This document shows positions 1,670 through 23,455 of a stretch of DNA of 64,000 bases, piece by piece. The translations under genes and the position numbers were made by a program. How positions within the stretch are numbered: position 1 is the first letter of the stretch; each line of letters begins with the position of its first letter. Origin of the DNA: Chitinophagaceae bacterium (GTDB taxonomy: Bacteria > Bacteroidota > Bacteroidia > Chitinophagales > Chitinophagaceae); contig SAIW01000006.1 of NCBI GenBank assembly GCA_004028795.1, positions 613,541 to 677,540 of the forward strand. Direction: 5' to 3'. The notes beneath the pieces were generated by a model. The model saw only the letters and a program-made list of their open reading frames with translations, ran no database searches and was not told where the DNA came from.

Positions 1670-2329
1670 TTACAAAACAACAATTCCGTTTTTTATTGCA
1701 TAGAGAACTAAGCCAACCCTTGTATTAAGATTTAGTTTTTTAAACAAAGCATCTCGGTAACCATCAATGGTTCTTTCACTAACAAACATTTCTTTAGCTA
1801 TTTGAGCATAACTTTTTTCGCTGCATGCCAATTGAAGAAATGTCAATTCACGTTCACTCAATTTCAATAATTTATTTACGCTGCTGTCTTCATCAACCAA
1901 TAAATTTATTGAGTTTAAAATTTTTCTCGATACCAATTCATTATAAAAAAAACCTTTGCTTAATACTTCATTAAATGCCAGTTTCAATTCATCCGGCTCT
2001 GCATCTTTTAAAACGTAACCTTTAGCTCCGCATTTAATCATTTTAATAATGGCAGTATCAGCATCCATTGTACTCAGAGCTATTACTTTTATTTCAGGGT
2101 GCTTATTTTTTAACCAAACAGTTGTATCGTAGCCATCCATTTCAGGCATTGAAATATCCATTAAAACAATATCCGGCAAATCATTTTCCTTCAGTTTATG
2201 TATAAAGTCTTTACCATTTTCAGCATCAAATAAAATTGTATAATTAGCAAACATGTTAATAAGCATACAAAGCCCTTTTCTGAACATGGCATGGTCATCT
2301 ACAACCACAATTTTCTTTTCGTTATTCAT
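1670..2329 (-). CDS. Two-component response regulator, NarL/FixJ (LuxR HTH) family
   Basis: N-terminal receiver domain (VVVDDHAMFRKGL, phospho-acceptor Asp region LMDISMPEMDG) and C-terminal LuxR-type HTH (LSERELTFLQLACSEKSYAQIAKEMFVSERTIDGYR). Confidence 0.85.
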   Translation of the reverse strand: MNNEKKIVVVDDHAMFRKGLCMLINMFANYTILFDAENGKDFIHKLKENDLPDIVLMDISMPEMDGYDTTVWLKNKHPEIKVIALSTMDADTAIIKMIKCGAKGYVLKDAEPDELKLAFNEVLSKGFFYNELVSRKILNSINLLVDEDSSVNKLLKLSERELTFLQLACSEKSYAQIAKEMFVSERTIDGYRDALFKKLNLNTRVGLVLYAIKNGIVVL

Positions 2330-3101
2330 AAGGTATATTTAGATTAATTGTTGTACCGTTATTTATTTCACTTTCTATAGACGCATTACCGCCGATTAAT
2401 GAAGCACGTTTGATGATATTTTGCAAGCCAAGCCCTGTGTGGTTTTCATCTGTTAAGTTAAAGCCTTTACCGTTATCTATAATCTGAATTGCCAACTCAG
2501 TTTCCTGAAACACTAATGCTAAATTTATTTTGCTTGCATAAGCATGTTTTAAAACATTATTCAAAGCTTCCTGCACTATACGAAAAACGATTAGTTTTTT
2601 CTTACTATCAATTTTTTGAACAGCACCGATAACGTTTATTGAACAAAGATTGGCTTTTGTTTTATTTAATCTGTCAACCTCATGTTGCAATGCCTGTAAA
2701 ATATCAAACTGCTCAATTCTTTCTGTACTCAAGCCTTTGGCAATATCCCGCAAATCATTCATTGCCCTGCTGATGTTTTCTTTAGTGTCTTTTAATATTG
2801 CCGGAGGGTTAACTAATTGTTCTTCTAAAATATTCATCTGCACTTTTGCCAAACTTAATATTTGCCCCACATTATCGTGTATTTCCTGGCTAATAATATT
2901 GAAAGTTTGTTCTTGAATTTCAAGTTGGGATTGGAGTGTTTGTTTTTCGAATTCTTGAATTAATTCAATCTTTTCTTGTATGTATTTATTTTTTCGTTTT
3001 CTATAAGTTAAGAAAATTAAAATAATAAAAGCACCTAATAAAGCTGAAATAATTGAAAATAGAAAAATAGCTAATTCAATATTTATTATACCTGTTTGCA
3101 T
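2322..3101 (-). CDS. Sensor histidine kinase, HisKA_3/NarX-LiaS type
   Basis: Single N-terminal TM helix, coiled coil, H-box EIHDNVGQILS, HATPase_c G-boxes (NGKGF, GLGLQNI). Overlaps the downstream regulator gene by 8 nt. Confidence 0.8.
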   Translation of the reverse strand: MQTGIINIELAIFLFSIISALLGAFIILIFLTYRKRKNKYIQEKIELIQEFEKQTLQSQLEIQEQTFNIISQEIHDNVGQILSLAKVQMNILEEQLVNPPAILKDTKENISRAMNDLRDIAKGLSTERIEQFDILQALQHEVDRLNKTKANLCSINVIGAVQKIDSKKKLIVFRIVQEALNNVLKHAYASKINLALVFQETELAIQIIDNGKGFNLTDENHTGLGLQNIIKRASLIGGNASIESEINNGTTINLNIPYE

Positions 3102-3718
3102 TTTATAAAACCTATTGAAAAAAAAGAATATAAAATTAGATTCAAATTATTATTTATAATCCTAAAAATTTTACCCCCTAAAGAGATATTTGTATCTCTT
3201 AAATAGCTTTGAAACAAACTATCAACGATATCCCCGCTATAAAATAAAATTATTCCTGAGCTTATCCAAAACATGGTATCTTCTGATAATTTAATTGTTT
3301 CGTTGCTTTCAAATTTTTCAAATAAAAAAAGAAAAGAAGTAACAAGTAAAATTATTGAACAGCTAATCAATGAATAATAATGAAAAATATTTATACTTTT
3401 TAAGTAAAAAAAATTACCAACTACAACTAAATCTTGCACTAGATAACTATATTTTATTACTATCTTAAAAGTATTACGGTTGGTATGGTTTAAATAAATA
3501 AATAGATAAAACACAAATTCTATGTTAATGAAAATATTATACAACCAAGTGTTATTATGATACCTTAGAGCTAACCACTTACCCAAAAATTCAACAGCTA
3601 CAGTTAATCCTAAAAAAAATGTAAACCAGTTAAGTTTGGATAGTTTTAGCTTACGATAACAGATTAAACTTGTAATAAAAGCAACCAACTCAAATATATT
3701 GTGCACTGCTATTTGCAT
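3086..3718 (-). CDS. Polytopic membrane protein (about 6 TM helices), possibly the sensor module for the adjacent kinase
   Basis: Highly hydrophobic 210-aa product. Overlaps the kinase start by 16 nt in a different frame. Confidence 0.5.
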   Translation of the reverse strand: MQIAVHNIFELVAFITSLICYRKLKLSKLNWFTFFLGLTVAVEFLGKWLALRYHNNTWLYNIFINIEFVFYLFIYLNHTNRNTFKIVIKYSYLVQDLVVVGNFFYLKSINIFHYYSLISCSIILLVTSFLFLFEKFESNETIKLSEDTMFWISSGIILFYSGDIVDSLFQSYLRDTNISLGGKIFRIINNNLNLILYSFFSIGFIKCKQV

Positions 3719-3726
3719 TGGTTGTA

Positions 3727-4410
3727 CTAATTTTCACCCGGAGGGCAATTGGTCGGACATAGGTCGCCATGATTAAGTGCCCCATCCTGAAATTTTTTTA
3801 AAAGTAATGCCTCTTTTTTTGACCCATCTAGTAATGATAGAAAATATTTGTTTACGACAGTAAAATCATTTTCTCGAATACCTTTTTGATTAATTTTTGT
3901 TGGAACAAAAAACAGAGTTGCTTGTTGATCATATTTTTGATGAATGGTAGTATTATGCATTGTTGTGTTATAAGCTCCGAAATAGATATTGACACCGTTC
4001 AATCCGAATTTTGGGTCTTGTAACAAGTCAGATAAATATTTAATAACATCTTTATCAAACCATACTAATGTTGATAACTTACCATTTAATCTCGGGTCTG
4101 TAGATCCATTCTCTGTATTAATATTTGGTGCATTATCATCTGCATCAATTGGAGTATGAGTTGAAATTCCAGCAATTGGTATAACTTGTCCTGAGTTGTT
4201 GTATAATGCAGGATGTCGGTGAAATCTATCGAAATTATGCCTCATTTCAAAAGCCTCTTTTTTGGTTATGAATGCATTTCCAGCTCCATAAAGTGTTGCT
4301 AATTTTTCTGGGTCTAATTTTTCTTTGCTTTTTAGCTTAACAATTATAATTGCTTGAGCAATCGCTAATCCTACAAAAACAATGAGTGCAAAAACTAAAA
4401 ATTTTGTCAT
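3727..4410 (-). CDS. Secreted hypothetical protein
   Basis: Signal peptide MTKFLVFALIVFVGLAIAQA; no recognisable motif. Confidence 0.5.
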   Translation of the reverse strand: MTKFLVFALIVFVGLAIAQAIIIVKLKSKEKLDPEKLATLYGAGNAFITKKEAFEMRHNFDRFHRHPALYNNSGQVIPIAGISTHTPIDADDNAPNINTENGSTDPRLNGKLSTLVWFDKDVIKYLSDLLQDPKFGLNGVNIYFGAYNTTMHNTTIHQKYDQQATLFFVPTKINQKGIRENDFTVVNKYFLSLLDGSKKEALLLKKFQDGALNHGDLCPTNCPPGEN

Positions 4411-4639
4411 AAAACAGTTTTTAAAGGTTTAAAATAATTTAATTAAATACAATATTGCAATAATTATTAACAATTACAAATGTGTTAACCACTATTTAAT
4501 ACGGGGTTAAAACACGGTACCAAAAACGGGTAAGGCACACATTTAAATTTCTTCAACTACTTTCTACGTTTACACTGCAAACCAAAACCCGTAAGCCGAA
4601 AAGGGTATTATAGAGTAGGCAGAAAATGAAAAAATAATT

Positions 4640-5653
4640 ATGAAGAAGCATTTCTTTATTCTGTTAATAATCTTATATTTTACTAAAATCAATGCACAAA
4701 ATTTAATTCCTTCAAAAAATTTTTCGGCACAAAAAAATTTTTCACCAGAAAAAATTTATAAAGAATTTACATCAGGTGAACAAGAATCTTCCCCTAAGGA
4801 AACAGATGATTTTGAAACACTAGTTAAATATTATAATCGAAATAAAAAAGATGATTTGCATAAAACTGAGTGTGAAAACGCATTAAAATTTATTAAAAAT
4901 AAACTTATGGATAGTTCAAGAAAACAAAGCCCTTTTAAATTATTAGGAAATGCAGGAGCAGGAAATATAACAGCGGATAATTTACAAAAAACTATTGGTA
5001 GTATGTCAATTGGTTGCCAAGTTAGAATAGGCCCTTATTATTTGTCGGAAAGTGAGAGCTATGTAAATTCTTGGTATATATATGCATTATGGAATACCAA
5101 AATTGGCACATCTTCAGATAGCTCCATATTACAAAAAAATGTTTTGTTCCCTGAAATCGGGAAGAGAGATTTTGTCATAGGGCTACTTTTTAATAAAACA
5201 AACTTGAAATTTGAATGGAATGCTGTTCCATTTATAGAGATTGCACTGAATAGTTATATTGATACAAGTGCTTCAGCAAAAAAAAATAATACAAACTATA
5301 GTTTTAAAACTATCAGCTTTTTAGCAGGCGAAAAGTTTATTAAAAATTTTTCATTAACAGCATTAGATAAGAGGGTTAATGGAAGTTTTACAATACAGCC
5401 TTACTATCAAATAATTTCCATAGACCCCAAATACTCCCTTGGCTATACAACTCTTACTAAAGAAAGTAATGCTTACCCTACAATACATAGTTTAGGTGTA
5501 AATACTATATTGGAATTAGGAAATTTAGCCATTTTTTGTAACACTAAATATATTCTCAATAAAAGTTCTGATGACCCTAAAAGCGATAAGTATATAGCGA
5601 GTAGCGACTTTAAAAGGTTGGTTTATTCTATCGGCACTTTAATAAGTTTATAA
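4640..5653 (+). CDS. Secreted hypothetical protein (possible outer-membrane beta-barrel)
   Basis: Signal peptide MKKHFFILLIILYFTKINAQ; alternating amphipathic stretches; no catalytic motif. Confidence 0.5.
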   Translation: MKKHFFILLIILYFTKINAQNLIPSKNFSAQKNFSPEKIYKEFTSGEQESSPKETDDFETLVKYYNRNKKDDLHKTECENALKFIKNKLMDSSRKQSPFKLLGNAGAGNITADNLQKTIGSMSIGCQVRIGPYYLSESESYVNSWYIYALWNTKIGTSSDSSILQKNVLFPEIGKRDFVIGLLFNKTNLKFEWNAVPFIEIALNSYIDTSASAKKNNTNYSFKTISFLAGEKFIKNFSLTALDKRVNGSFTIQPYYQIISIDPKYSLGYTTLTKESNAYPTIHSLGVNTILELGNLAIFCNTKYILNKSSDDPKSDKYIASSDFKRLVYSIGTLISL

Positions 5654-7606: not shown

Positions 7607-8038
7607 ATGGCAACCTCTGATAAGGGTAAGAAACCTTCACCCAAGAAAACAACAGACGAAGAAGTAGAAAAAAAACCATCTACCAAAAGCAAAAAGCAAT
7701 TGGATGATGACGATAATGATTTAGAAGATGATGATGACGATGTAAAGCCAGCTAAAAAAGGGGCTAAGGCTGCATCAAAGAAAACGAAGGATGATGATGA
7801 CGACGATGATGATGACGTAGAAGAGGAAGATGATGATTGGAATAAAGCCGATGAAGATGATAGCTGGGACCCTGATTTTGATGAGTTTGATGTGCCTAAA
7901 TCTAAAGGTAAAAAAACTGCGGGCGGTGCAAAGAAAAAAGGTGAGGATGACGATGACTTTAAGTTGGATGAAGACTTTAAAGAGTTTGATATGTTTGATG
8001 ATAAAGATGAATTTGGTGATGATGACGATGATTTTTAA
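7607..8038 (+). CDS. Highly acidic low-complexity protein (Lys-rich N-terminus, poly-Asp/Glu body)
   Basis: 143-aa ORF, K-rich first 40 aa, then runs such as DDDDDDDDDVEEEDDD. The antisense ORFs are hydrophobic artefacts of the GAT repeats. Confidence 0.5.
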   Translation: MATSDKGKKPSPKKTTDEEVEKKPSTKSKKQLDDDDNDLEDDDDDVKPAKKGAKAASKKTKDDDDDDDDDVEEEDDDWNKADEDDSWDPDFDEFDVPKSKGKKTAGGAKKKGEDDDDFKLDEDFKEFDMFDDKDEFGDDDDDF

Positions 8039-13051: not shown

Positions 13052-13402
13052 TTAGAATCTTTTTTCTTTAATTCTTGCACTTTTACCGCTTCTTTCACGT
13101 AAGTAAAACAATTTAGCACGGCGTACTTTACCGGATTTGTTTAATACAATTGAATCAATATTTGGTGAAAAGAAAGGAAATAAACGTTCAACACCAACCC
13201 CATCAGAAATTTTACGAACTGTAAAGCTGGCTGTAGCACCGTTTCCCTGTAATTTAAGCACATCTCCGCGGAAACTTTGAATACGCTCTTTACCACCTTC
13301 TACAATTTTATAATTGACAGTGATATTGTCACCGCTTTTAAACTTCGGGAATTCTTTTTTTGCAGTCAATTGCTCGTGTACAAATTTTACGGCTGCGTTC
13401 AT
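13052..13402 (-). CDS. rplS: 50S ribosomal protein L19
   Basis: Full-length L19 (FKSGDNITVNYKIVEGGKERIQSFRG...). Confidence 0.95.
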   Translation of the reverse strand: MNAAVKFVHEQLTAKKEFPKFKSGDNITVNYKIVEGGKERIQSFRGDVLKLQGNGATASFTVRKISDGVGVERLFPFFSPNIDSIVLNKSGKVRRAKLFYLRERSGKSARIKEKRF

Positions 13403-13573
13403 AACTTACATTTTTTAGGACGGCAAAAGTAGGGGAAAGTTTTTAGTTATTCAGCAATAACAGCATTTTTTTTAGAAATTTATAATTCCTGTGCTTTAAT
13501 TAACCTGATATCGCTCAAACATAAAAACTCAATTGTATTAACTTTAGCCCACACTAATTAAATTAAATGCTCT

Positions 13574-14116
13574 ATGTATGGAATTGTAAATAAAGCTATT
13601 GAAGATTTGGTAATTGAAAATTTTGGAGCGGAAAAATGGGATGCAGTAAAGCTAAGAAGTGGTGTAGATATAGACTTTTTTATTAGTAATGAACCCTATG
13701 ACGACGATGTAACATTTAAACTTGCTTCAGCTGTTTCTGAGGAATTGAATATTACTTTAAGTGAAGTTTTAATTGCTTTTGGCGAATATTGGGTACTGAA
13801 AACAGGCAAAGAAAAATATGGAAGTTTGATGGAAGCAGGCGGCAGCAACCTGAAAGAGTTTCTTGTTAATCTACCCAATTTTCACAACAGAATTATGTTA
13901 ATGTTTCCCAAGCTTACACCCCCTGAATTTAAAGTTAGTAATTTGGAGGAAAGAAGTATTCATGTGCATTATATTTCTAAAAGAGAAGGTTTACAGGATT
14001 TTACAAAAGGCTTACTGCAAGGTTTAGGCAAATTATATAACACTGCTGTTACAATAGAATTGCTTGAGGACAGAGCTTCCGGCAGCCATCATGAAATATT
14101 TAAAGTTTCCTGGTAA
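13574..14116 (+). CDS. H-NOX (haem nitric oxide/oxygen binding) sensor protein
   Basis: Starts MYGIVNKAIEDLV; proximal His104 in NFHNR; Pro112; Y133-x-S135-x-R137 haem-propionate motif; 180 aa stand-alone. Confidence 0.85.
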   Translation: MYGIVNKAIEDLVIENFGAEKWDAVKLRSGVDIDFFISNEPYDDDVTFKLASAVSEELNITLSEVLIAFGEYWVLKTGKEKYGSLMEAGGSNLKEFLVNLPNFHNRIMLMFPKLTPPEFKVSNLEERSIHVHYISKREGLQDFTKGLLQGLGKLYNTAVTIELLEDRASGSHHEIFKVSW

Positions 14117-14117
14117 A

Positions 14118-17100
14118 ATGGAAATGCTTCAATTTAATAGCGAACAATTTAACAGCCTTTTTCCTTTTTATTTTTTGTTGAATAATAAAATGCAAATAAT
14201 AAAAACTGGAAACTCTTTGGCTAAACTGATTGTTATCAACAGAAACGAACCTTTTTCTGAAGTCTTTGCTATCCAAAGACCGGTTTTAGAAACAGTTGCA
14301 GATTTTAAGAGCTCAGTTAACCTGTGTAATCAGCTTATTTCCATCAAATGTTTAAAAAAAGAAAATATCTCGTTAAGAGGTCAGTTCCAATACTTACAAC
14401 AGGCCGATAAGATTCTTTTCATTGGCTCTCCCTGGTTCTCCAGTGTTGAAGAAATTAAAGAAAATAATTTAAAGCTAAACGATTTTGCCGTACACGACCC
14501 GGTGATAGATTTATTGCATTTACTTAAAACACAGGAAATTGTTACGGATGAAGTAAAGGTTTTATTAAATACCATCAACAAGCAGAAATCAGATTTAAAA
14601 AGACTATCACTCTTAGCACAGGAAACAGTTAACGGCGTTGTTATAACTGATGCTTCAGGAAAGATTGAATGGATTAACAAAGGCTTTGAAAAAATAACAG
14701 GCTATTCTTTAGAAGAAATAAAAAATAAAACTCCGGGTAGCATATTGCAAGGCAAAGATTCATCAGCAGAAACAATTAATTATTTAAAACAACAAATTTT
14801 AAATAAACAACCTTTTGTTTGCGAGATTATCAATTATAAAAAGAACGGTCAGCAATATTGGGTTAGAATAAATGGCCAGCCTTTATTTGATAATAAGAAT
14901 ATGCTTACCGGCTTTTTTGCCATTGAAGAAGATATAACACAGGAAAAAGAAAACGAATTAAATCTTCAGCATTATGAAGAGAGATTCAGAATTGCTTTAG
15001 AAAAAATTGGTGATAATGTTTGGATACATGATTTTGAAAGCAATACCACAGAATTCTCAAAAAATGATACAGACTTTTTAGGCTTTGATTTATCTAAAAC
15101 TAAAATTAATCCGCAGCTATGGTGGAACTGTGTACACCCTGATGATAAATGGATGTTAAATAAAAATAATGCAGCTTATCTGGCAGGAGAAATAGACCAT
15201 CATAATTTAGAATACAGAATTATTCATAAGACCGGACAAGTAAAATGGGTACTCGACAGAGGTATTGTGTTCGAGAAAAAAAATAACCTCCCTCTCAGAA
15301 TTATAGGTACACATACAGATATTACCAAGCTGAAAGAAGCAGAAGCCACTATCAATACTCAAAAACAGTTTTACGAAACCATTTTAAATAATATCCCTTC
15401 AGATATTGCAGTTTTTGATAATACACACAAATATCTTTTTGTAAACCCAAAAGGTATTAAAGATGAAAATATAAGAAAATGGATTATAGGAAAAAGGGAT
15501 GAGGATTATATTAAATTCAGAAACAAACCATCCTATATATTAGAAGGAAGAAGAAAGCTTTTTAATGAAGTTTTAAAATCAAAAAAAATTAAAAGCTGGG
15601 AAGAAGAAGTAATTAAGCCGGATGGAAGCCGTGAATACATTATCAGAAATATGTATCCATACGTAAATGAAAAAGGTATAGTTGAATTGATTATTGGCTA
15701 CGGAGTTGATATTACCGAAAGAATAAAAATAGAGCAGCAGCTTAAAATAGCCCAACAGGAAACACAGGAAGCTGCACTTGCTAAAGAACGTTTTTTAGCT
15801 AATATGAGCCATGAAATTAGAACGCCGATGAATGGCATCTTAGGCATAACAGGCTTTTTAGAGAAAACACATTTACTTCCTAAGCAAAAAGAATATGTTC
15901 ATTTAATTAAAGAATCAACAAGTAATTTATTGGTAATTCTTAATGATGTTTTGGATCTCGAAAAAATTATTGCAGGCAAATTAGAATTAGAGAAAACACC
16001 CTTCAATGTTTCACAAAAAATAAAAGCCGCTGCAGAATCTTTCAGGCACAAAGCAGAAGAAAAGTATTTAACCATTAAATACAAAAACAATTTGCCTGAA
16101 AATTTATTTGTTGAAGGAGACCCCTACAGGCTTAGCCAGGTATTACTTAACTTAATAAGCAATGCCATAAAATTTACTGAGAAAGGTACCATAACAATTG
16201 GTGCAGATATTAAACAACAAAGCAAGAATACCATTGAAATTTCTTTTTTTATAGCAGATACCGGTGTTGGTATTGCCAAAAATAAATTAACACAAATCTT
16301 TGATCCTTACGTTCAGGCAAAGGCGGATATTTCGAGAAAATATGGTGGTACTGGTTTAGGGCTTTCTATATGTAAAAACCTTGTTGAAATACAAAACGGA
16401 AATATTACAGTAGAAAGTAAAGAAGGTAAAGGTTCTACTTTCAACTTTACTATTACTTATAAAAAAGCTAAACAAACAACCGAACCAAAACCTATTGTAT
16501 TAAACTTTAAAGGATTAAAAAATAAAAACATACTTGTTGCAGAAGACGTAGAAGTAAATCAATACGTTATAGAAAATATGCTTAAAAACTGGGGCTGTAA
16601 AACTACCATTGTAGATACCGGTAAGAAAGCAGTACAGGCAGTTAAAAGCAAAAGCTTCGATTTAATATTAATGGATGTACAAATGCCTGAAATGAATGGC
16701 TTTGAAGCAACAGAAGCCATAAGAAAATTAAGCAATAAACAAAAAGCAAATTTGCCTGTAATAGCTGTAACTGCTAACTCTATGAAGGGTATAAGCAGCA
16801 GATATAAAAGTTCGGGCATGAATGATTATATCTTAAAGCCTTTTGATGAAGCGAGTTTATTTGCAGTAATGGAAAAGTTTCTATTAAGTAAGTACCCTTC
16901 AAAAAAAATTGGTGTGAAAAAAGCTATGGTTTACGACGCAGCTAAAATAAAAGCATTGGCAAAAGGAGATGATGCTTTCATAAAAAAACTTAGTGAAATT
17001 TTTACCAGAACTTCACCTCAAATATTTAAAGCATTGCAGGAAGCCATTGCAGAAAAAAACTGGCAGCAGGCAGGCAAAGAAGCCCATAAACTAAAGTCTT

Positions 17101-17264
17101 CTATAAACTCACTCGGAATTAGCGATGGTAAAAAGTTAATTGAAGATATTGAGCAACGATGCAAAACAAAAAAACAGTTAAGCACCGTTGCATTATTATG
17201 CAATAAGTTCAAAATAGTTTTGGATAAAAGCATTGAACAATTAACGAATAATTTTTTAAACTAA
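14118..17264 (+). CDS. Hybrid sensor histidine kinase: HNOBA-like domain, PAS repeats, HisKA, HATPase_c, receiver, HPt
   Basis: ATG sits 2 nt after the H-NOX stop. LFPFYFLLNNKMQIIKTGNS resembles the sGC-type HNOBA domain. H-box MSHEIRTPMNGILG, G2-box GGTGLGLSI, receiver with DVQMPEMNG, C-terminal HPt-like helix bundle (AHKLKSSINSLG). Confidence 0.85.
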   Translation: MEMLQFNSEQFNSLFPFYFLLNNKMQIIKTGNSLAKLIVINRNEPFSEVFAIQRPVLETVADFKSSVNLCNQLISIKCLKKENISLRGQFQYLQQADKILFIGSPWFSSVEEIKENNLKLNDFAVHDPVIDLLHLLKTQEIVTDEVKVLLNTINKQKSDLKRLSLLAQETVNGVVITDASGKIEWINKGFEKITGYSLEEIKNKTPGSILQGKDSSAETINYLKQQILNKQPFVCEIINYKKNGQQYWVRINGQPLFDNKNMLTGFFAIEEDITQEKENELNLQHYEERFRIALEKIGDNVWIHDFESNTTEFSKNDTDFLGFDLSKTKINPQLWWNCVHPDDKWMLNKNNAAYLAGEIDHHNLEYRIIHKTGQVKWVLDRGIVFEKKNNLPLRIIGTHTDITKLKEAEATINTQKQFYETILNNIPSDIAVFDNTHKYLFVNPKGIKDENIRKWIIGKRDEDYIKFRNKPSYILEGRRKLFNEVLKSKKIKSWEEEVIKPDGSREYIIRNMYPYVNEKGIVELIIGYGVDITERIKIEQQLKIAQQETQEAALAKERFLANMSHEIRTPMNGILGITGFLEKTHLLPKQKEYVHLIKESTSNLLVILNDVLDLEKIIAGKLELEKTPFNVSQKIKAAAESFRHKAEEKYLTIKYKNNLPENLFVEGDPYRLSQVLLNLISNAIKFTEKGTITIGADIKQQSKNTIEISFFIADTGVGIAKNKLTQIFDPYVQAKADISRKYGGTGLGLSICKNLVEIQNGNITVESKEGKGSTFNFTITYKKAKQTTEPKPIVLNFKGLKNKNILVAEDVEVNQYVIENMLKNWGCKTTIVDTGKKAVQAVKSKSFDLILMDVQMPEMNGFEATEAIRKLSNKQKANLPVIAVTANSMKGISSRYKSSGMNDYILKPFDEASLFAVMEKFLLSKYPSKKIGVKKAMVYDAAKIKALAKGDDAFIKKLSEIFTRTSPQIFKALQEAIAEKNWQQAGKEAHKLKSSINSLGISDGKKLIEDIEQRCKTKKQLSTVALLCNKFKIVLDKSIEQLTNNFLN

Positions 17265-17266
17265 TT

Positions 17267-17983
17267 TTGTTGTTAATGATTGATGGTGCAAAATATAATG
17301 CATTGATTGTTGAAGATGATGAGCTATCTGTTGCTTTGGTTGAAAGAAATTTTTCTTTTTTTCCTGATTATACAATCAGCCATATTGCTGCTACAATAAA
17401 AGATGCAGTTAAGTATCTTTCTGTTAATCATGTTGATGTAATTTTCTTAGATATAGATTTACCCGACGGTGAGGGTTTTAGTGTTATTCCTTATTTAACA
17501 GGTAATCCCGCGGTTGTGGTACTAACAGCAAATGAGCAATATGCATTTACTGCATTTGAAAACGGTGTTCTCGACTTTTTAAAAAAGCCTGTTACACCCG
17601 CACGTTTTAAAAAAAGTATTGAGAAAATAAACAATCATTTAAACCCGGCTTCTAAAACTTTAAATGAAACTGAAAAGCCCTTCTTATTTGTAAAAGCTGG
17701 TAATAAACATGTTAAAGTAAACATTCACGAATTAATGTATGTTGAAGCAGTAAATGATTATGCCAAGCTACACCTTACAACAGGTAAAACAGTATTGATA
17801 AATATTTCTTTGAAGGAAGTTTTACAACGCTTATTAAAATACCAGTTTACACAGGTTCACCGTTCTTATGCTATTAACATGCAACACATAGAATTAATTG
17901 ATGATAATACAATTTTTATTAAAGAACATCAGATTCCCATAGGCAAAACTTACAAATCAACTGTTTCTAAACTACTCAAATAG
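17267..17983 (+). CDS. LytTR-family response regulator (REC + LytTR DNA-binding domain)
   Basis: Receiver domain (IFLDIDLPDGEG) plus LytTR domain (HELMYVEAVNDYAKLHLTTGKTVLINISLKEV...VHRSYAIN). The ORF tool starts at TTG 17267; the ATG at 17276 is more likely. Confidence 0.85.
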   Translation: MLLMIDGAKYNALIVEDDELSVALVERNFSFFPDYTISHIAATIKDAVKYLSVNHVDVIFLDIDLPDGEGFSVIPYLTGNPAVVVLTANEQYAFTAFENGVLDFLKKPVTPARFKKSIEKINNHLNPASKTLNETEKPFLFVKAGNKHVKVNIHELMYVEAVNDYAKLHLTTGKTVLINISLKEVLQRLLKYQFTQVHRSYAINMQHIELIDDNTIFIKEHQIPIGKTYKSTVSKLLK

Positions 17984-18215
17984 GTTTTTAACAACCATTT
18001 CCCCTCTACGTATTCCATTCACAGGAAAAAACACTCCTTTCACAGGCTAAGCATTTGCAGGCTTCTGTAATCATTTCATATTTGCACTCGCAAAATAAAA
18101 ATTGCTGAATCCAATAATCCTTCCAATAATCCTAAAGACCCGGTTTGCTAACCAAAAAACATTTTTGTTAATGCGAAACCCTTTATAAGTGTAAACCGAA
18201 AATCCTTATCCTAAA

Positions 18216-18250
18216 ACCAAAAAGCCCCGTAATCTTACAGGGCTTTTTTA
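18216..18250. terminator. Bidirectional terminator between convergent genes
   Basis: AAAAAGCCCCG...CAGGGCTTTTTT hairpin with an A-tract on one side and a T-tract on the other. Confidence 0.6.
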
Positions 18251-18273
18251 ATTTTATAATTGCCGTAAAGTTA

Positions 18274-22965: not shown

Positions 22966-23455
22966 TTAAAAATTGCTTATTAGCCGCAAATATAATTGAT
23001 TGAATTTTTAAGCTTTTTAATGTTGGTTATCATTGCCACAAATGCACTGATAAATCTCGATTATTCATATTGATACATGTATGGCAACACTTAGAAATTG
23101 AGATTTTAATAAATAATTCATCAATGCATTCCTGCAAAACATTAAAATTTTACCCAATGCAGTTACACAATAAACGTTTTGATAGTTAGGTTTTGCAAAA
23201 AAATCTTTCTGCACATAAAATGTGTATTTGTTTGTGGAAAGCAGCGTATAACTTTTGTAAATTGTGAAGAAGCTAATAATTTCTGTTAGTATACTATAAA
23301 TACCTGTTGATAGTTTTGTGAAATGATGTGGAAGAAAATTGAAAGAAAAAAATTTTTAAGTGCTGAATTTCTACCCCATATTCGTTTCCCTTTCTTTCTA
23401 AGTAACAATTTCTTAATAAAGGGCTGTTGCTTTTAAAGAAGGTAAGTGAAAACAA

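Follow-up and report, generated by a model that had tools for sequence, protein, structure and literature searches.

A Bacteroidota operon of a stand-alone H-NOX protein, an HNOBA-containing hybrid kinase and a LytTR regulator: a probable nitric oxide-responsive phosphorelay

The locus described here lies at positions 13574-17983 of the plus strand in a 64-kb stretch of DNA (the window, i.e. the whole stretch that was analysed). Three tightly packed plus-strand open reading frames (ORFs) fill this segment and encode, in this order, a stand-alone H-NOX protein, a hybrid sensor histidine kinase with an N-terminal HNOBA domain, and a response regulator composed of a receiver (REC) and a LytTR domain. 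An earlier interpretation made from the letters alone (the sequence-only reading) had named the domains of the three proteins and suggested hidden Markov model searches as a check; Pfam supports all of them. None of the NCBIfam equivalogs reached its cut-off for any of the three proteins, which leaves them without a named orthologue. The genes and their parts are the following (aa, amino acids; nt, nucleotides).

13574..14116, plus strand: stand-alone H-NOX haem sensor, 180 aa (Pfam HNOB, 163.6 bits; PDB match; structural model)
14118..17264, plus strand: hybrid sensor histidine kinase, 1048 aa, with HNOBA, three PAS, HisKA, HATPase_c, REC and Hpt domains (Pfam)
14118..14600, plus strand: HNOBA domain (H-NOXA, PAS-like) and start of a helical linker, aa 1-161 (Pfam HNOBA, 84.6 bits; phmmer)
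14601..15722, plus strand: three PAS domains, approximately aa 162-276, 300-399 and 423-535 (Pfam, segment scans)
15780..16457, plus strand: HisKA, aa 555-619 (His565, nt 15810), and HATPase_c, aa 667-780 (Pfam, residues)
16530..16868, plus strand: receiver of the kinase, aa 805-917 (Asp853, nt 16674) (Pfam, residues)
16989..17243, plus strand: Hpt domain, aa 958-1042 (His990, nt 17085) (Pfam Hpt, 35.1 bits; residue)
17276..17983, plus strand: REC-LytTR response regulator, 235 aa, Asp59 at nt 17450 (Pfam Response_reg, 59.3 bits; LytTR, 55.0 bits)

The stop codon of the H-NOX gene (TAA, 14114-14116) is separated from the ATG of the kinase gene (14118) by a single base, A 14117, and the regulator gene begins 11 nt after the kinase stop codon (17262-17264). 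With gaps of 1 and 11 nt the three genes are packed like one operon. The tight junction between the first two genes had been seen in the sequence-only reading, where the gap was given as 2 nt and the kinase as 1049 aa; the gap is one base, and 1049 is the number of codons including the stop. For the regulator, ATG 17276 is the most likely start and the one called on identical contigs; an alternative is TTG 17267. A protein identical to the H-NOX is recorded as 'MAG: heme NO-binding protein [Chitinophaga sp.]' and occurs on 77 contigs, the longest of 3.5 Mb, so the window is chromosomal DNA, from a Chitinophaga-like member of the Bacteroidota, and the operon a chromosomal one. The G+C content is about 33%.

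The HNOB match of the first protein (Pfam cut-off 25.5 bits) covers profile positions 1-162 of 163. The nearest solved structures are those of the Nostoc sp. PCC 7120 H-NOX Alr2278 (E 1.9e-49, 44-46% identity), followed by animal soluble guanylate cyclase (sGC) beta1 (E 8e-28), Tt H-NOX (E 4e-8) and Shewanella proteins (E 1e-4). An AlphaFold model built from 47 homologues had a mean confidence (pLDDT) of 87.5, and its Foldseek superposition on the Nostoc structure 2O09 (template modelling score 0.92, root-mean-square deviation 1.8 A, 180 columns) identifies the H-NOX fold. M1-Y2-G3, H104, P112, Y133, S135 and R137 are all found in the protein. Residues were mapped by aligning the relatives with Nostoc H-NOX and with a Tt H-NOX sequence checked to be identical to PDB 1U4H: H104 corresponds to the proximal histidine H102, P117 to P115, and Y133, S135 and R137 to Y131, S133 and R135. 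A search with the H-NOX protein gave 2013 clusters at E <= 1e-10, and residue conservation was surveyed in the best 120 relatives (71-100% identical to the window protein). H104, P117, Y133, S135 and R137 are invariant in these 120 and in an alignment of 47 H-NOX sequences (A4). The haem signature claimed from the letters thus stands for MYG, His104 and Y133-S135-R137, but not for Pro112, whose conservation is no more than about 90%; it is the invariant P117 that aligns with the canonical haem-distorting proline (Tt P115, sGC P118).

The distal tyrosine that the sequence-only reading proposed to look for at the position of Tt Y140 is absent. This position is occupied by Phe143, a phenylalanine in 120 of 120 relatives, and that of Tt N74 by Trp73. 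A b-type haem would be bound through His104, and the non-polar distal pocket, with Phe143 and Trp73, is of the sGC/Nostoc type; this pocket makes nitric oxide (NO), or carbon monoxide (CO), the likely ligand rather than O2. The original 'NO or O2' is narrowed accordingly by Phe143 towards NO or CO. O2 sensing was rejected as a candidate on Phe143 and Trp73. A thiol/zinc redox switch is ascribed to some proteobacterial H-NOX proteins; sensing of this kind was ruled out for the window protein, which has no cysteine.

The H-NOX of K. algicida (PDB 6BDD/6BDE) is 21-22% identical to the window protein (13574-14113). If K. algicida is, as we take it to be, the flavobacterium Kordia algicida, Bacteroidota hold at least two distant H-NOX lineages.

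The N-terminus of the kinase had been described as HNOBA-like, and this is borne out by the Pfam score (84.6 bits, cut-off 23.4) and by alignments with sGC and with the Nostoc punctiforme signal-transduction histidine kinase fragment 2P04. Kinase residues 7-150 match residues 281-429, the H-NOXA domain, of human sGC alpha1 (phmmer E 5.4e-9); E-values of the HNOBA region against sGC alpha1/beta1 ranged from 5e-9 to 8e-7, and that against 2P04 was 4.2e-7. The segment LFPFYFLLNN... aligns with FPFHF at the start of H-NOXA in both human sGC alpha1 and 2P04. A helical stretch at approximately aa 135-165 would occupy the place of the sGC coiled coil. The PAS repeats, HisKA/HATPase, receiver and HPt domains listed in the sequence-only reading were all recovered, the number of PAS domains being three. 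In the full-length protein Pfam gave 84.8 bits for PAS_9, 84.7 for PAS_3, 66.8 for HisKA, 93.4 for HATPase_c and 90.3 for Response_reg. The PAS domains were located by PAS_9/PAS at 163-275 and PAS_3 at 319-399, and by segment scans with PAS_3 (55.3 bits) and PAS_4 (27.1 bits); they probably feed additional signals into the kinase. The catalytic set is complete: H565, N678 of the N box, the G1 (DTGVGI) and G2 (GGTGLGL) boxes, D853 and H990. This architecture is that of a hybrid multistep phosphorelay kinase of the ArcB/BarA/TorS kind, with the BarA, TorS, ArcB and LuxQ equivalogs below cut-off.

The third gene had been called a LytTR-type regulator, in agreement with its LytTR score (cut-off 22.6 bits) and the receiver that precedes this domain. 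The receiver residues D13/D14, D59, T84 and K104 are in place. The nearest NCBIfam models, BtsR and LytR, were both below cut-off.

A genome scan found 130 stretches encoding an H-NOX relative, and counts on loci rest on the best 80 of these 130. The 80 loci span Chitinophagaceae, Saprospiraceae, Flavobacterium, Lutibacter, Sediminibacterium, Lacibacter, Cyclobacteriaceae and others. In 80 of 80 Bacteroidota loci the gene directly 3' of the H-NOX gene encodes an HNOBA domain; H-NOX followed by an HNOBA kinase was also seen in two cyanobacterial loci, from a Nostocales genome and from Leptolyngbya. The strictly linked H-NOX/HNOBA-kinase pair is a conserved core of the Nostoc type (PDB 2O09, 2P04) known from structural work, and the pairing is very common and previously noted in the literature, hence not unusual. 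The HNOB and HNOBA domains were reportedly defined by Iyer et al. in 2003, and the 2P04 structure is said to be that of Ma et al. from 2008. H-NOX is the most conserved part of these systems, with 72-81% identity where the HisKA/HATPase region is 39-75% identical.

One relative, L111, keeps the synteny of rplS, kinase, regulator and rny, with 325 nt (2134-2458) between rplS and the kinase; tblastn detected no H-NOX at the syntenic site. Its HNOBA region (2459-2935) is 36% identical to that of the window, as against 69-72% for the PAS, kinase and receiver parts. The ratio of HNOBA identity to that of the rest is thus 0.51, compared with 0.76-0.81 in loci that keep H-NOX. The divergence is consistent with HNOBA being functionally coupled to H-NOX.

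Orthologues of the regulator (58-73% identity) were always found directly behind an orthologous kinase, in three chromosomal contexts: rplS ... rny (window, L084, L085, L111), ABC-F (L009, L115) and TPR (L112, L116). In L113 a 52%-identical regulator follows a homologous PAS-HisKA-REC kinase that has neither an HNOBA domain nor an H-NOX neighbour. The kinase-regulator pair looks like the older unit, to which H-NOX and HNOBA may have been added as an input module. In L084 (8616-12402), the closest non-identical relative (H-NOX 91%), kinase and regulator are split into many short gene calls; these are probably assembly frameshift errors and not pseudogenes, since the DNA aligns throughout.

Partner genes were tallied in 60 loci with complete flanks by scoring the same-strand gene run:

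sigma54-type (NtrC-like) regulator: 28 of 60 loci
REC-LytTR regulator: 8 of 60 loci
LuxR-type regulator: 4 of 60 loci
no DNA-binding regulator in the gene run: 20 of 60 loci
FIST_N/FIST_C protein: 27 of 60 loci
small cupin: 6 of 60 loci
catalase-peroxidase (KatG): 4 of 60 loci

With 8 LytTR-type loci against 28 of the sigma54 type, LytTR is a minority variant among interchangeable outputs and not a separate system. We found no paper tying H-NOX to a LytTR regulator.

In 27-28 of the 60 loci the gene order is sigma54-type regulator, FIST_N/FIST_C protein (about 379 aa), H-NOX and HNOBA kinase; this order is seen in L006, L007, L012, L021, L023, L024, L026-L028, L032, L033, L035, L036 and others (H-NOX at 8001). 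The NO sensor NosP has this FIST_N/FIST_C fold; with the NosP model the FIST proteins of the relatives reach only 67.5 bits, the cut-off being 450. A single kinase accompanied by two different putative NO sensors seems to be undescribed in the literature searched. The window was also checked for a FIST/NosP or sigma54 partner outside the operon, and this idea was rejected: neither a FIST homologue nor a sigma54 regulator occurs in the whole 64 kb.

Directly 3' of the HNOBA kinase, four loci of the Sediminibacterium type encode a KatG-like catalase-peroxidase of 735 aa (L029:12188-14395, L034, L039, L041), a neighbour that hints at a link of the sensor with oxidative or nitrosative stress defence. 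The cupin stands immediately after the kinase in L026, L033, L035, L048, L067 and L069; it resembles the C-terminal domain of mannose-6-phosphate isomerase and has 164 aa in five loci and 129 aa in L048. In the Nostocales locus L117 the H-NOX/HNOBA-GAF kinase is followed by genes for a REC-SpoIIE (PP2C) regulator, a STAS protein and an anti-sigma kinase (13332-14555, 14947-17140), and its output is a partner-switching module, not a DNA-binding one.

The closest known counterpart of the window operon is the Nostoc pair of Alr2278 and HNOBA kinase (2O09; 2P04), which shares the stand-alone sGC-like H-NOX followed by a kinase with N-terminal HNOBA. The Nostocales relative even shares the order H-NOX, then HNOBA...HisKA-HATPase-REC-Hpt. 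The cyanobacterial kinase differs in having GAF instead of PAS middle domains, the Nostocales output has REC-SpoIIE near STAS/anti-sigma genes and no DNA-binding LytTR, and the Leptolyngbya kinase is a short non-hybrid HNOBA kinase. To our knowledge, neither cyanobacterial pathway has been functionally tested.

In the HnoX-HnoK systems of Shewanella oneidensis and Vibrio cholerae, too, a kinase-adjacent H-NOX acts in trans upon NO, and HnoC is a transcription factor (PMC8738867); according to the literature, the main outputs of the Hno network are cyclic di-GMP (c-di-GMP) enzymes. The window operon differs from this network in having no c-di-GMP gene nearby, and the Shewanella/Vibrio H-NOX proteins are 17-19% identical to the window protein. 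HnoK, as far as we know, lacks an HNOBA domain and is no hybrid kinase with REC and Hpt domains. The statement that no c-di-GMP enzyme and no HnoB/C/D regulator accompanies the operon held for the operon itself and for about 5 kb around it; response regulators of the EAL or HD-GYP type found in the Shewanella/Vibrio-type network were likewise missing within about 5 kb, and the REC-LytTR protein is the operon's only regulator.

The H-NOX-HqsK-LuxU-LuxO pathway of Vibrio harveyi and V. parahaemolyticus shares an H-NOX-controlled hybrid kinase, an Hpt step and a transcription regulator (PMC8738867), and LuxO parallels the sigma54 regulators of many relatives of the window locus. It differs in its separate Hpt protein (LuxU), its sigma54-type regulator and its merging with quorum sensing. 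We know of no HNOBA domain in the HqsK pathway. Animal sGC (beta1 H-NOX, PAS/H-NOXA, coiled coil, cyclase) has the first three modules in the same order and the same non-polar distal pocket, but in the window two polypeptides share these modules, and a histidine kinase takes the place of the nucleotide cyclase as output. Known LytTR regulators (AgrA, BtsR/YpdB, LytR and those with HdrR/BrsR-type sites) share the REC and LytTR domains and the 9-12-9 geometry of a candidate site described below, but they lie downstream of peptide- or metabolite-sensing membrane kinases, and not of a haem gas sensor and a hybrid kinase. In NosP-NahK, too, the gene of an accessory haem NO sensor, there a FIST-domain protein, neighbours that of a hybrid kinase. 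The kinase core of the window protein resembles the NahK/ErcS model (196.8 bits, below the cut-off of 400), and the window differs in lacking a FIST gene, though many relatives have one in the same operon.

We propose, with a probability of about 0.7, that the operon encodes an NO-responsive multistep phosphorelay. The stand-alone H-NOX with its b-type haem would bind NO (possibly CO), not O2, and dock in trans on the N-terminal part of the hybrid kinase, where the PAS-like HNOBA domain is followed by the helical linker. In animal sGC the corresponding two modules touch in cis. Ligand binding would alter the contact of H-NOX with HNOBA and the linker and thereby change autophosphorylation at His565, and the phosphoryl group could then pass to Asp853, to His990 of the Hpt domain and to Asp59 of the REC-LytTR regulator. 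The regulator would bind paired direct repeats and change transcription. In published H-NOX/kinase pairs the NO-bound H-NOX controls the adjacent kinase, and in the proteobacterial systems it inhibits it (review PMC8738867).

Several points weigh against this proposal. Regulation of the kinase by H-NOX could have either sign here, and the literature holds, as far as we found, no biochemistry for this protein or any Bacteroidota relative. The region 5' of the H-NOX gene (13403-13573) contains no convincing operon promoter. The three PAS domains could dominate the input of the kinase, and L113 indicates that the kinase-regulator pair can work without H-NOX, which makes H-NOX an accessory input. 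The argument for coupling drawn from L111 is that of a single metagenomic contig. On the output side, a hybrid kinase that contains an Hpt domain can have more than one regulator as its target, and one third of the tallied loci (20 of 60) have no DNA-binding regulator in the gene run.

The ligand is the subject of one rival explanation, in which H-NOX senses O2, CO or cellular redox state instead of NO and the module is an oxygen or redox switch. H-NOX from anaerobes (Tt H-NOX, PDB 1U4H) binds O2, Nostoc-type structures exist with other ligands, CO binding is compatible with the sequence, and PAS domains, of which the kinase has three, are often used for redox or O2 sensing. We give this explanation a small chance, as the tyrosine needed for O2 in Tt H-NOX is replaced in 120 of 120 relatives and its Asn74 partner by Trp73, the pocket is sGC/Nostoc-like, and a protein with no cysteine offers no thiol/zinc switch. 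That H-NOX is merely a neighbour of the kinase, with no functional link, is hardly credible given the adjacency in all 80 Bacteroidota loci across many families and in cyanobacteria, the 1-nt gap, and the presence in the kinase of the very domain that partners H-NOX in sGC.

The LytTR protein might also not be the main output: the kinase could chiefly feed an unlinked regulator, such as a sigma54 activator, or work mainly as a phosphatase or a sink for phosphate. A hybrid kinase that has an Hpt domain may have several receivers as partners, only 8 of the 60 related loci have LytTR as against 28 with a sigma54-type and 4 with a LuxR-type regulator and 20 with none, and in the Nostocales relative a REC-PP2C phosphatase stands in the regulator's place. 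The window, however, has neither a sigma54 regulator nor a FIST gene, and its regulator gene follows the kinase stop so closely, with orthologues kept behind the orthologous kinase in all three contexts, that we consider a bypass of LytTR improbable. The NO-responsive phosphorelay ending in the LytTR regulator is the reading we prefer.

The operon is flanked by housekeeping genes on the opposite strand, rplS, tatA, tatC and an amidase gene upstream and rny, zapA and pheT downstream. Together with SLT, these make up the genes within about 5 kb. Candidate control elements were sought on both sides of the operon:

13403..13573, plus strand: intergenic, presumed operon promoter region, between rplS (minus strand) and the H-NOX gene
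18014..18043, plus strand: direct repeat TCCATTCAC-12 nt-TCCTTTCAC (9-12-9), candidate LytTR site (repeat finding, conservation)
18054..18084, plus strand: promoter-like, TTTG at 18054-18057, 19 nt, CATATTTG at 18077-18084, one mismatch from the Bacteroidetes -33/-7 consensus
18085..18218, plus strand: conserved non-coding spacer body with tandem TCCAATAATCCT, two copies at 18110-18133, and the block CCGGTTTGCTAACC
18219..18256, both strands: hairpin flanked by an A-run and a T-run (inverted repeat I1, fold)

In the upstream region no exact Bacteroidetes -7 motif (TAnnTTTG) was found, the sole near match being TAACTTTA at 13539. The sigma70 and terminator consensus scan, which is uninformative for Bacteroidota, gave no terminator-like site inside the three genes. 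Among syntenic relatives the region 5' of the H-NOX gene is poorly conserved (55% column identity, alignment A2), whereas the 290-nt spacer separating the regulator gene from the convergent rny reaches 76% (alignment A1), in a comparison of only three independent clade 1 sequences.

The 9-12-9 repeat begins thirty nt past the regulator gene and recurs in syntenic relatives, with a period of 21 bp in L084 and of 20 bp in L085/L086. LytTR sites are nine-base direct repeats 12 bp apart that lie 4-10 bp upstream of a -35 element (PMC6193735), and the 9-12-9 geometry is typical of the family (PMC6193735; PMC4227749). The repeat sequence, TCCWTTCAC, differs from published LytTR consensus sequences. 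Three repeats of such quality occur in the window where 1.8 +/- 1.4 are expected, so the repeat alone is not significant; scaled by us to the 290-nt spacer, the chance expectation is about 0.008, and the repeat draws its weight from position and conservation, not from the window-wide count. The TTTG box starts 10 nt after it, and the Bacteroidetes -33/-7 consensus is TTTG/TAnnTTTG (PMC2483708). The CATATTTG box is kept in L084, and the promoter boxes are weak in L085. By its boxes, 18054-18084 is a putative promoter. The following segment, 18085-18218, has no ORF over 28 aa, and may be the body of a small RNA or the 3' untranslated region of the operon. The plus strand of the spacer folds with a z-score of -3.7, and in Rfam searches of the whole window and of the spacer no family reached threshold for the spacer. 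The inverted repeat I1 has 14-nt arms, 93% complementary and 2 nt apart, and folds into a hairpin on either strand; the hairpin, at 18219-18248, was missed by the terminator consensus scan and is kept in L084 and L085. It is probably a bidirectional intrinsic terminator for the operon (plus strand) and rny (minus strand). L111, the relative without H-NOX, also lacks the conserved spacer and has 88 nt between regulator and rny.

These elements may form a unit in which the repeat (18014-18043) is followed by the promoter-like boxes (18054-18084), the body (18085-18218) and the terminator (18219-18256). One could imagine that this non-coding unit of about 170 nt behind its own gene is the direct target of the regulator and encodes an NO-controlled small RNA, much as AgrA drives RNAIII, but we regard this as unlikely. 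In clade 2 (L009:4330-4500, L115:2050-2230, L112:2030-2200, L116:2020-2210) an invariant TCCAATATC-11 nt-TyCAATATC repeat with a 20-bp period stands 5' of the H-NOX gene, with a terminator-like hairpin about 115 nt later. The conserved gene of about 300 aa that precedes this repeat and the operon has no Pfam or NCBIfam match. The similar layout hints at a recurrent circuit from H-NOX to LytTR to small RNA in Bacteroidota.

Motif searches for further sites were unproductive. The pattern TTCACAGGAAAAAAN{4,9}TTCACAG gave 24 metagenome loci, none with H-NOX, kinase or LytTR homologues; the scan picked an unrelated repeated element, TAGGGACCAACCnAATTCACAGGAAAAAATGCATGATTTCACAG...TTTCACGGAAAATTCACGG, in L088, L089, L095, L096, L098, L099, L101, L102, L105 and L108. 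A merged motif of the two clades (TCCAWTNWC, 20-22 bp spacing) was unspecific, half of its 16 hits in 2.5 Mb being unrelated. A relaxed search of the window returned only 23318-23347 (minus strand, 3 mismatches) in the pheT-dnaB intergenic region, a match that is not significant (0.18 expected; 2 of 100 shuffles gave at least two).

Elsewhere in the window, an Rfam DUF805b RNA motif (4586-4621, plus strand; 42 bits, gathering score 35.6) lies 18 nt 5' of a 337-aa ORF without a Pfam match (4640-5653). On the minus strand, the segment 1670-4410 encodes a further two-component pair, of the NarL/LuxR type (regulator 1670-2329, HisKA_3 kinase 2322-3101); the two ORFs before it (3086-3718, 3727-4410) have no Pfam match. 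Rfam also found tRNA clusters on the minus strand, with five genes at 34942-35435 and two at 32833-32961, the latter weak (33.7 and 29.1 bits, gathering score 29).

The locus is an uncharacterised member of the known Nostoc-type H-NOX/HNOBA-kinase two-component systems, and its LytTR output is of a less common type. Detailed work on H-NOX signalling comes almost entirely from Proteobacteria, where the kinase is not known to carry HNOBA and the outputs are mostly c-di-GMP enzymes. The lineage of Bacteroidota and cyanobacteria is very large (at least 2000 protein clusters at E < 1e-10) and functionally uncharacterised. The LytTR ending is a minor variation, and it is the family, not the single locus, that is of value. 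With H-NOX and the sGC-type HNOBA/PAS module on separate polypeptides, the family offers a simple bacterial model for how H-NOX talks to a PAS/coiled-coil module, a matter of continuing study in animal sGC, for which phosphorylation or transcription would be an easy read-out, and it would offer a first way into NO sensing by environmental Bacteroidota.

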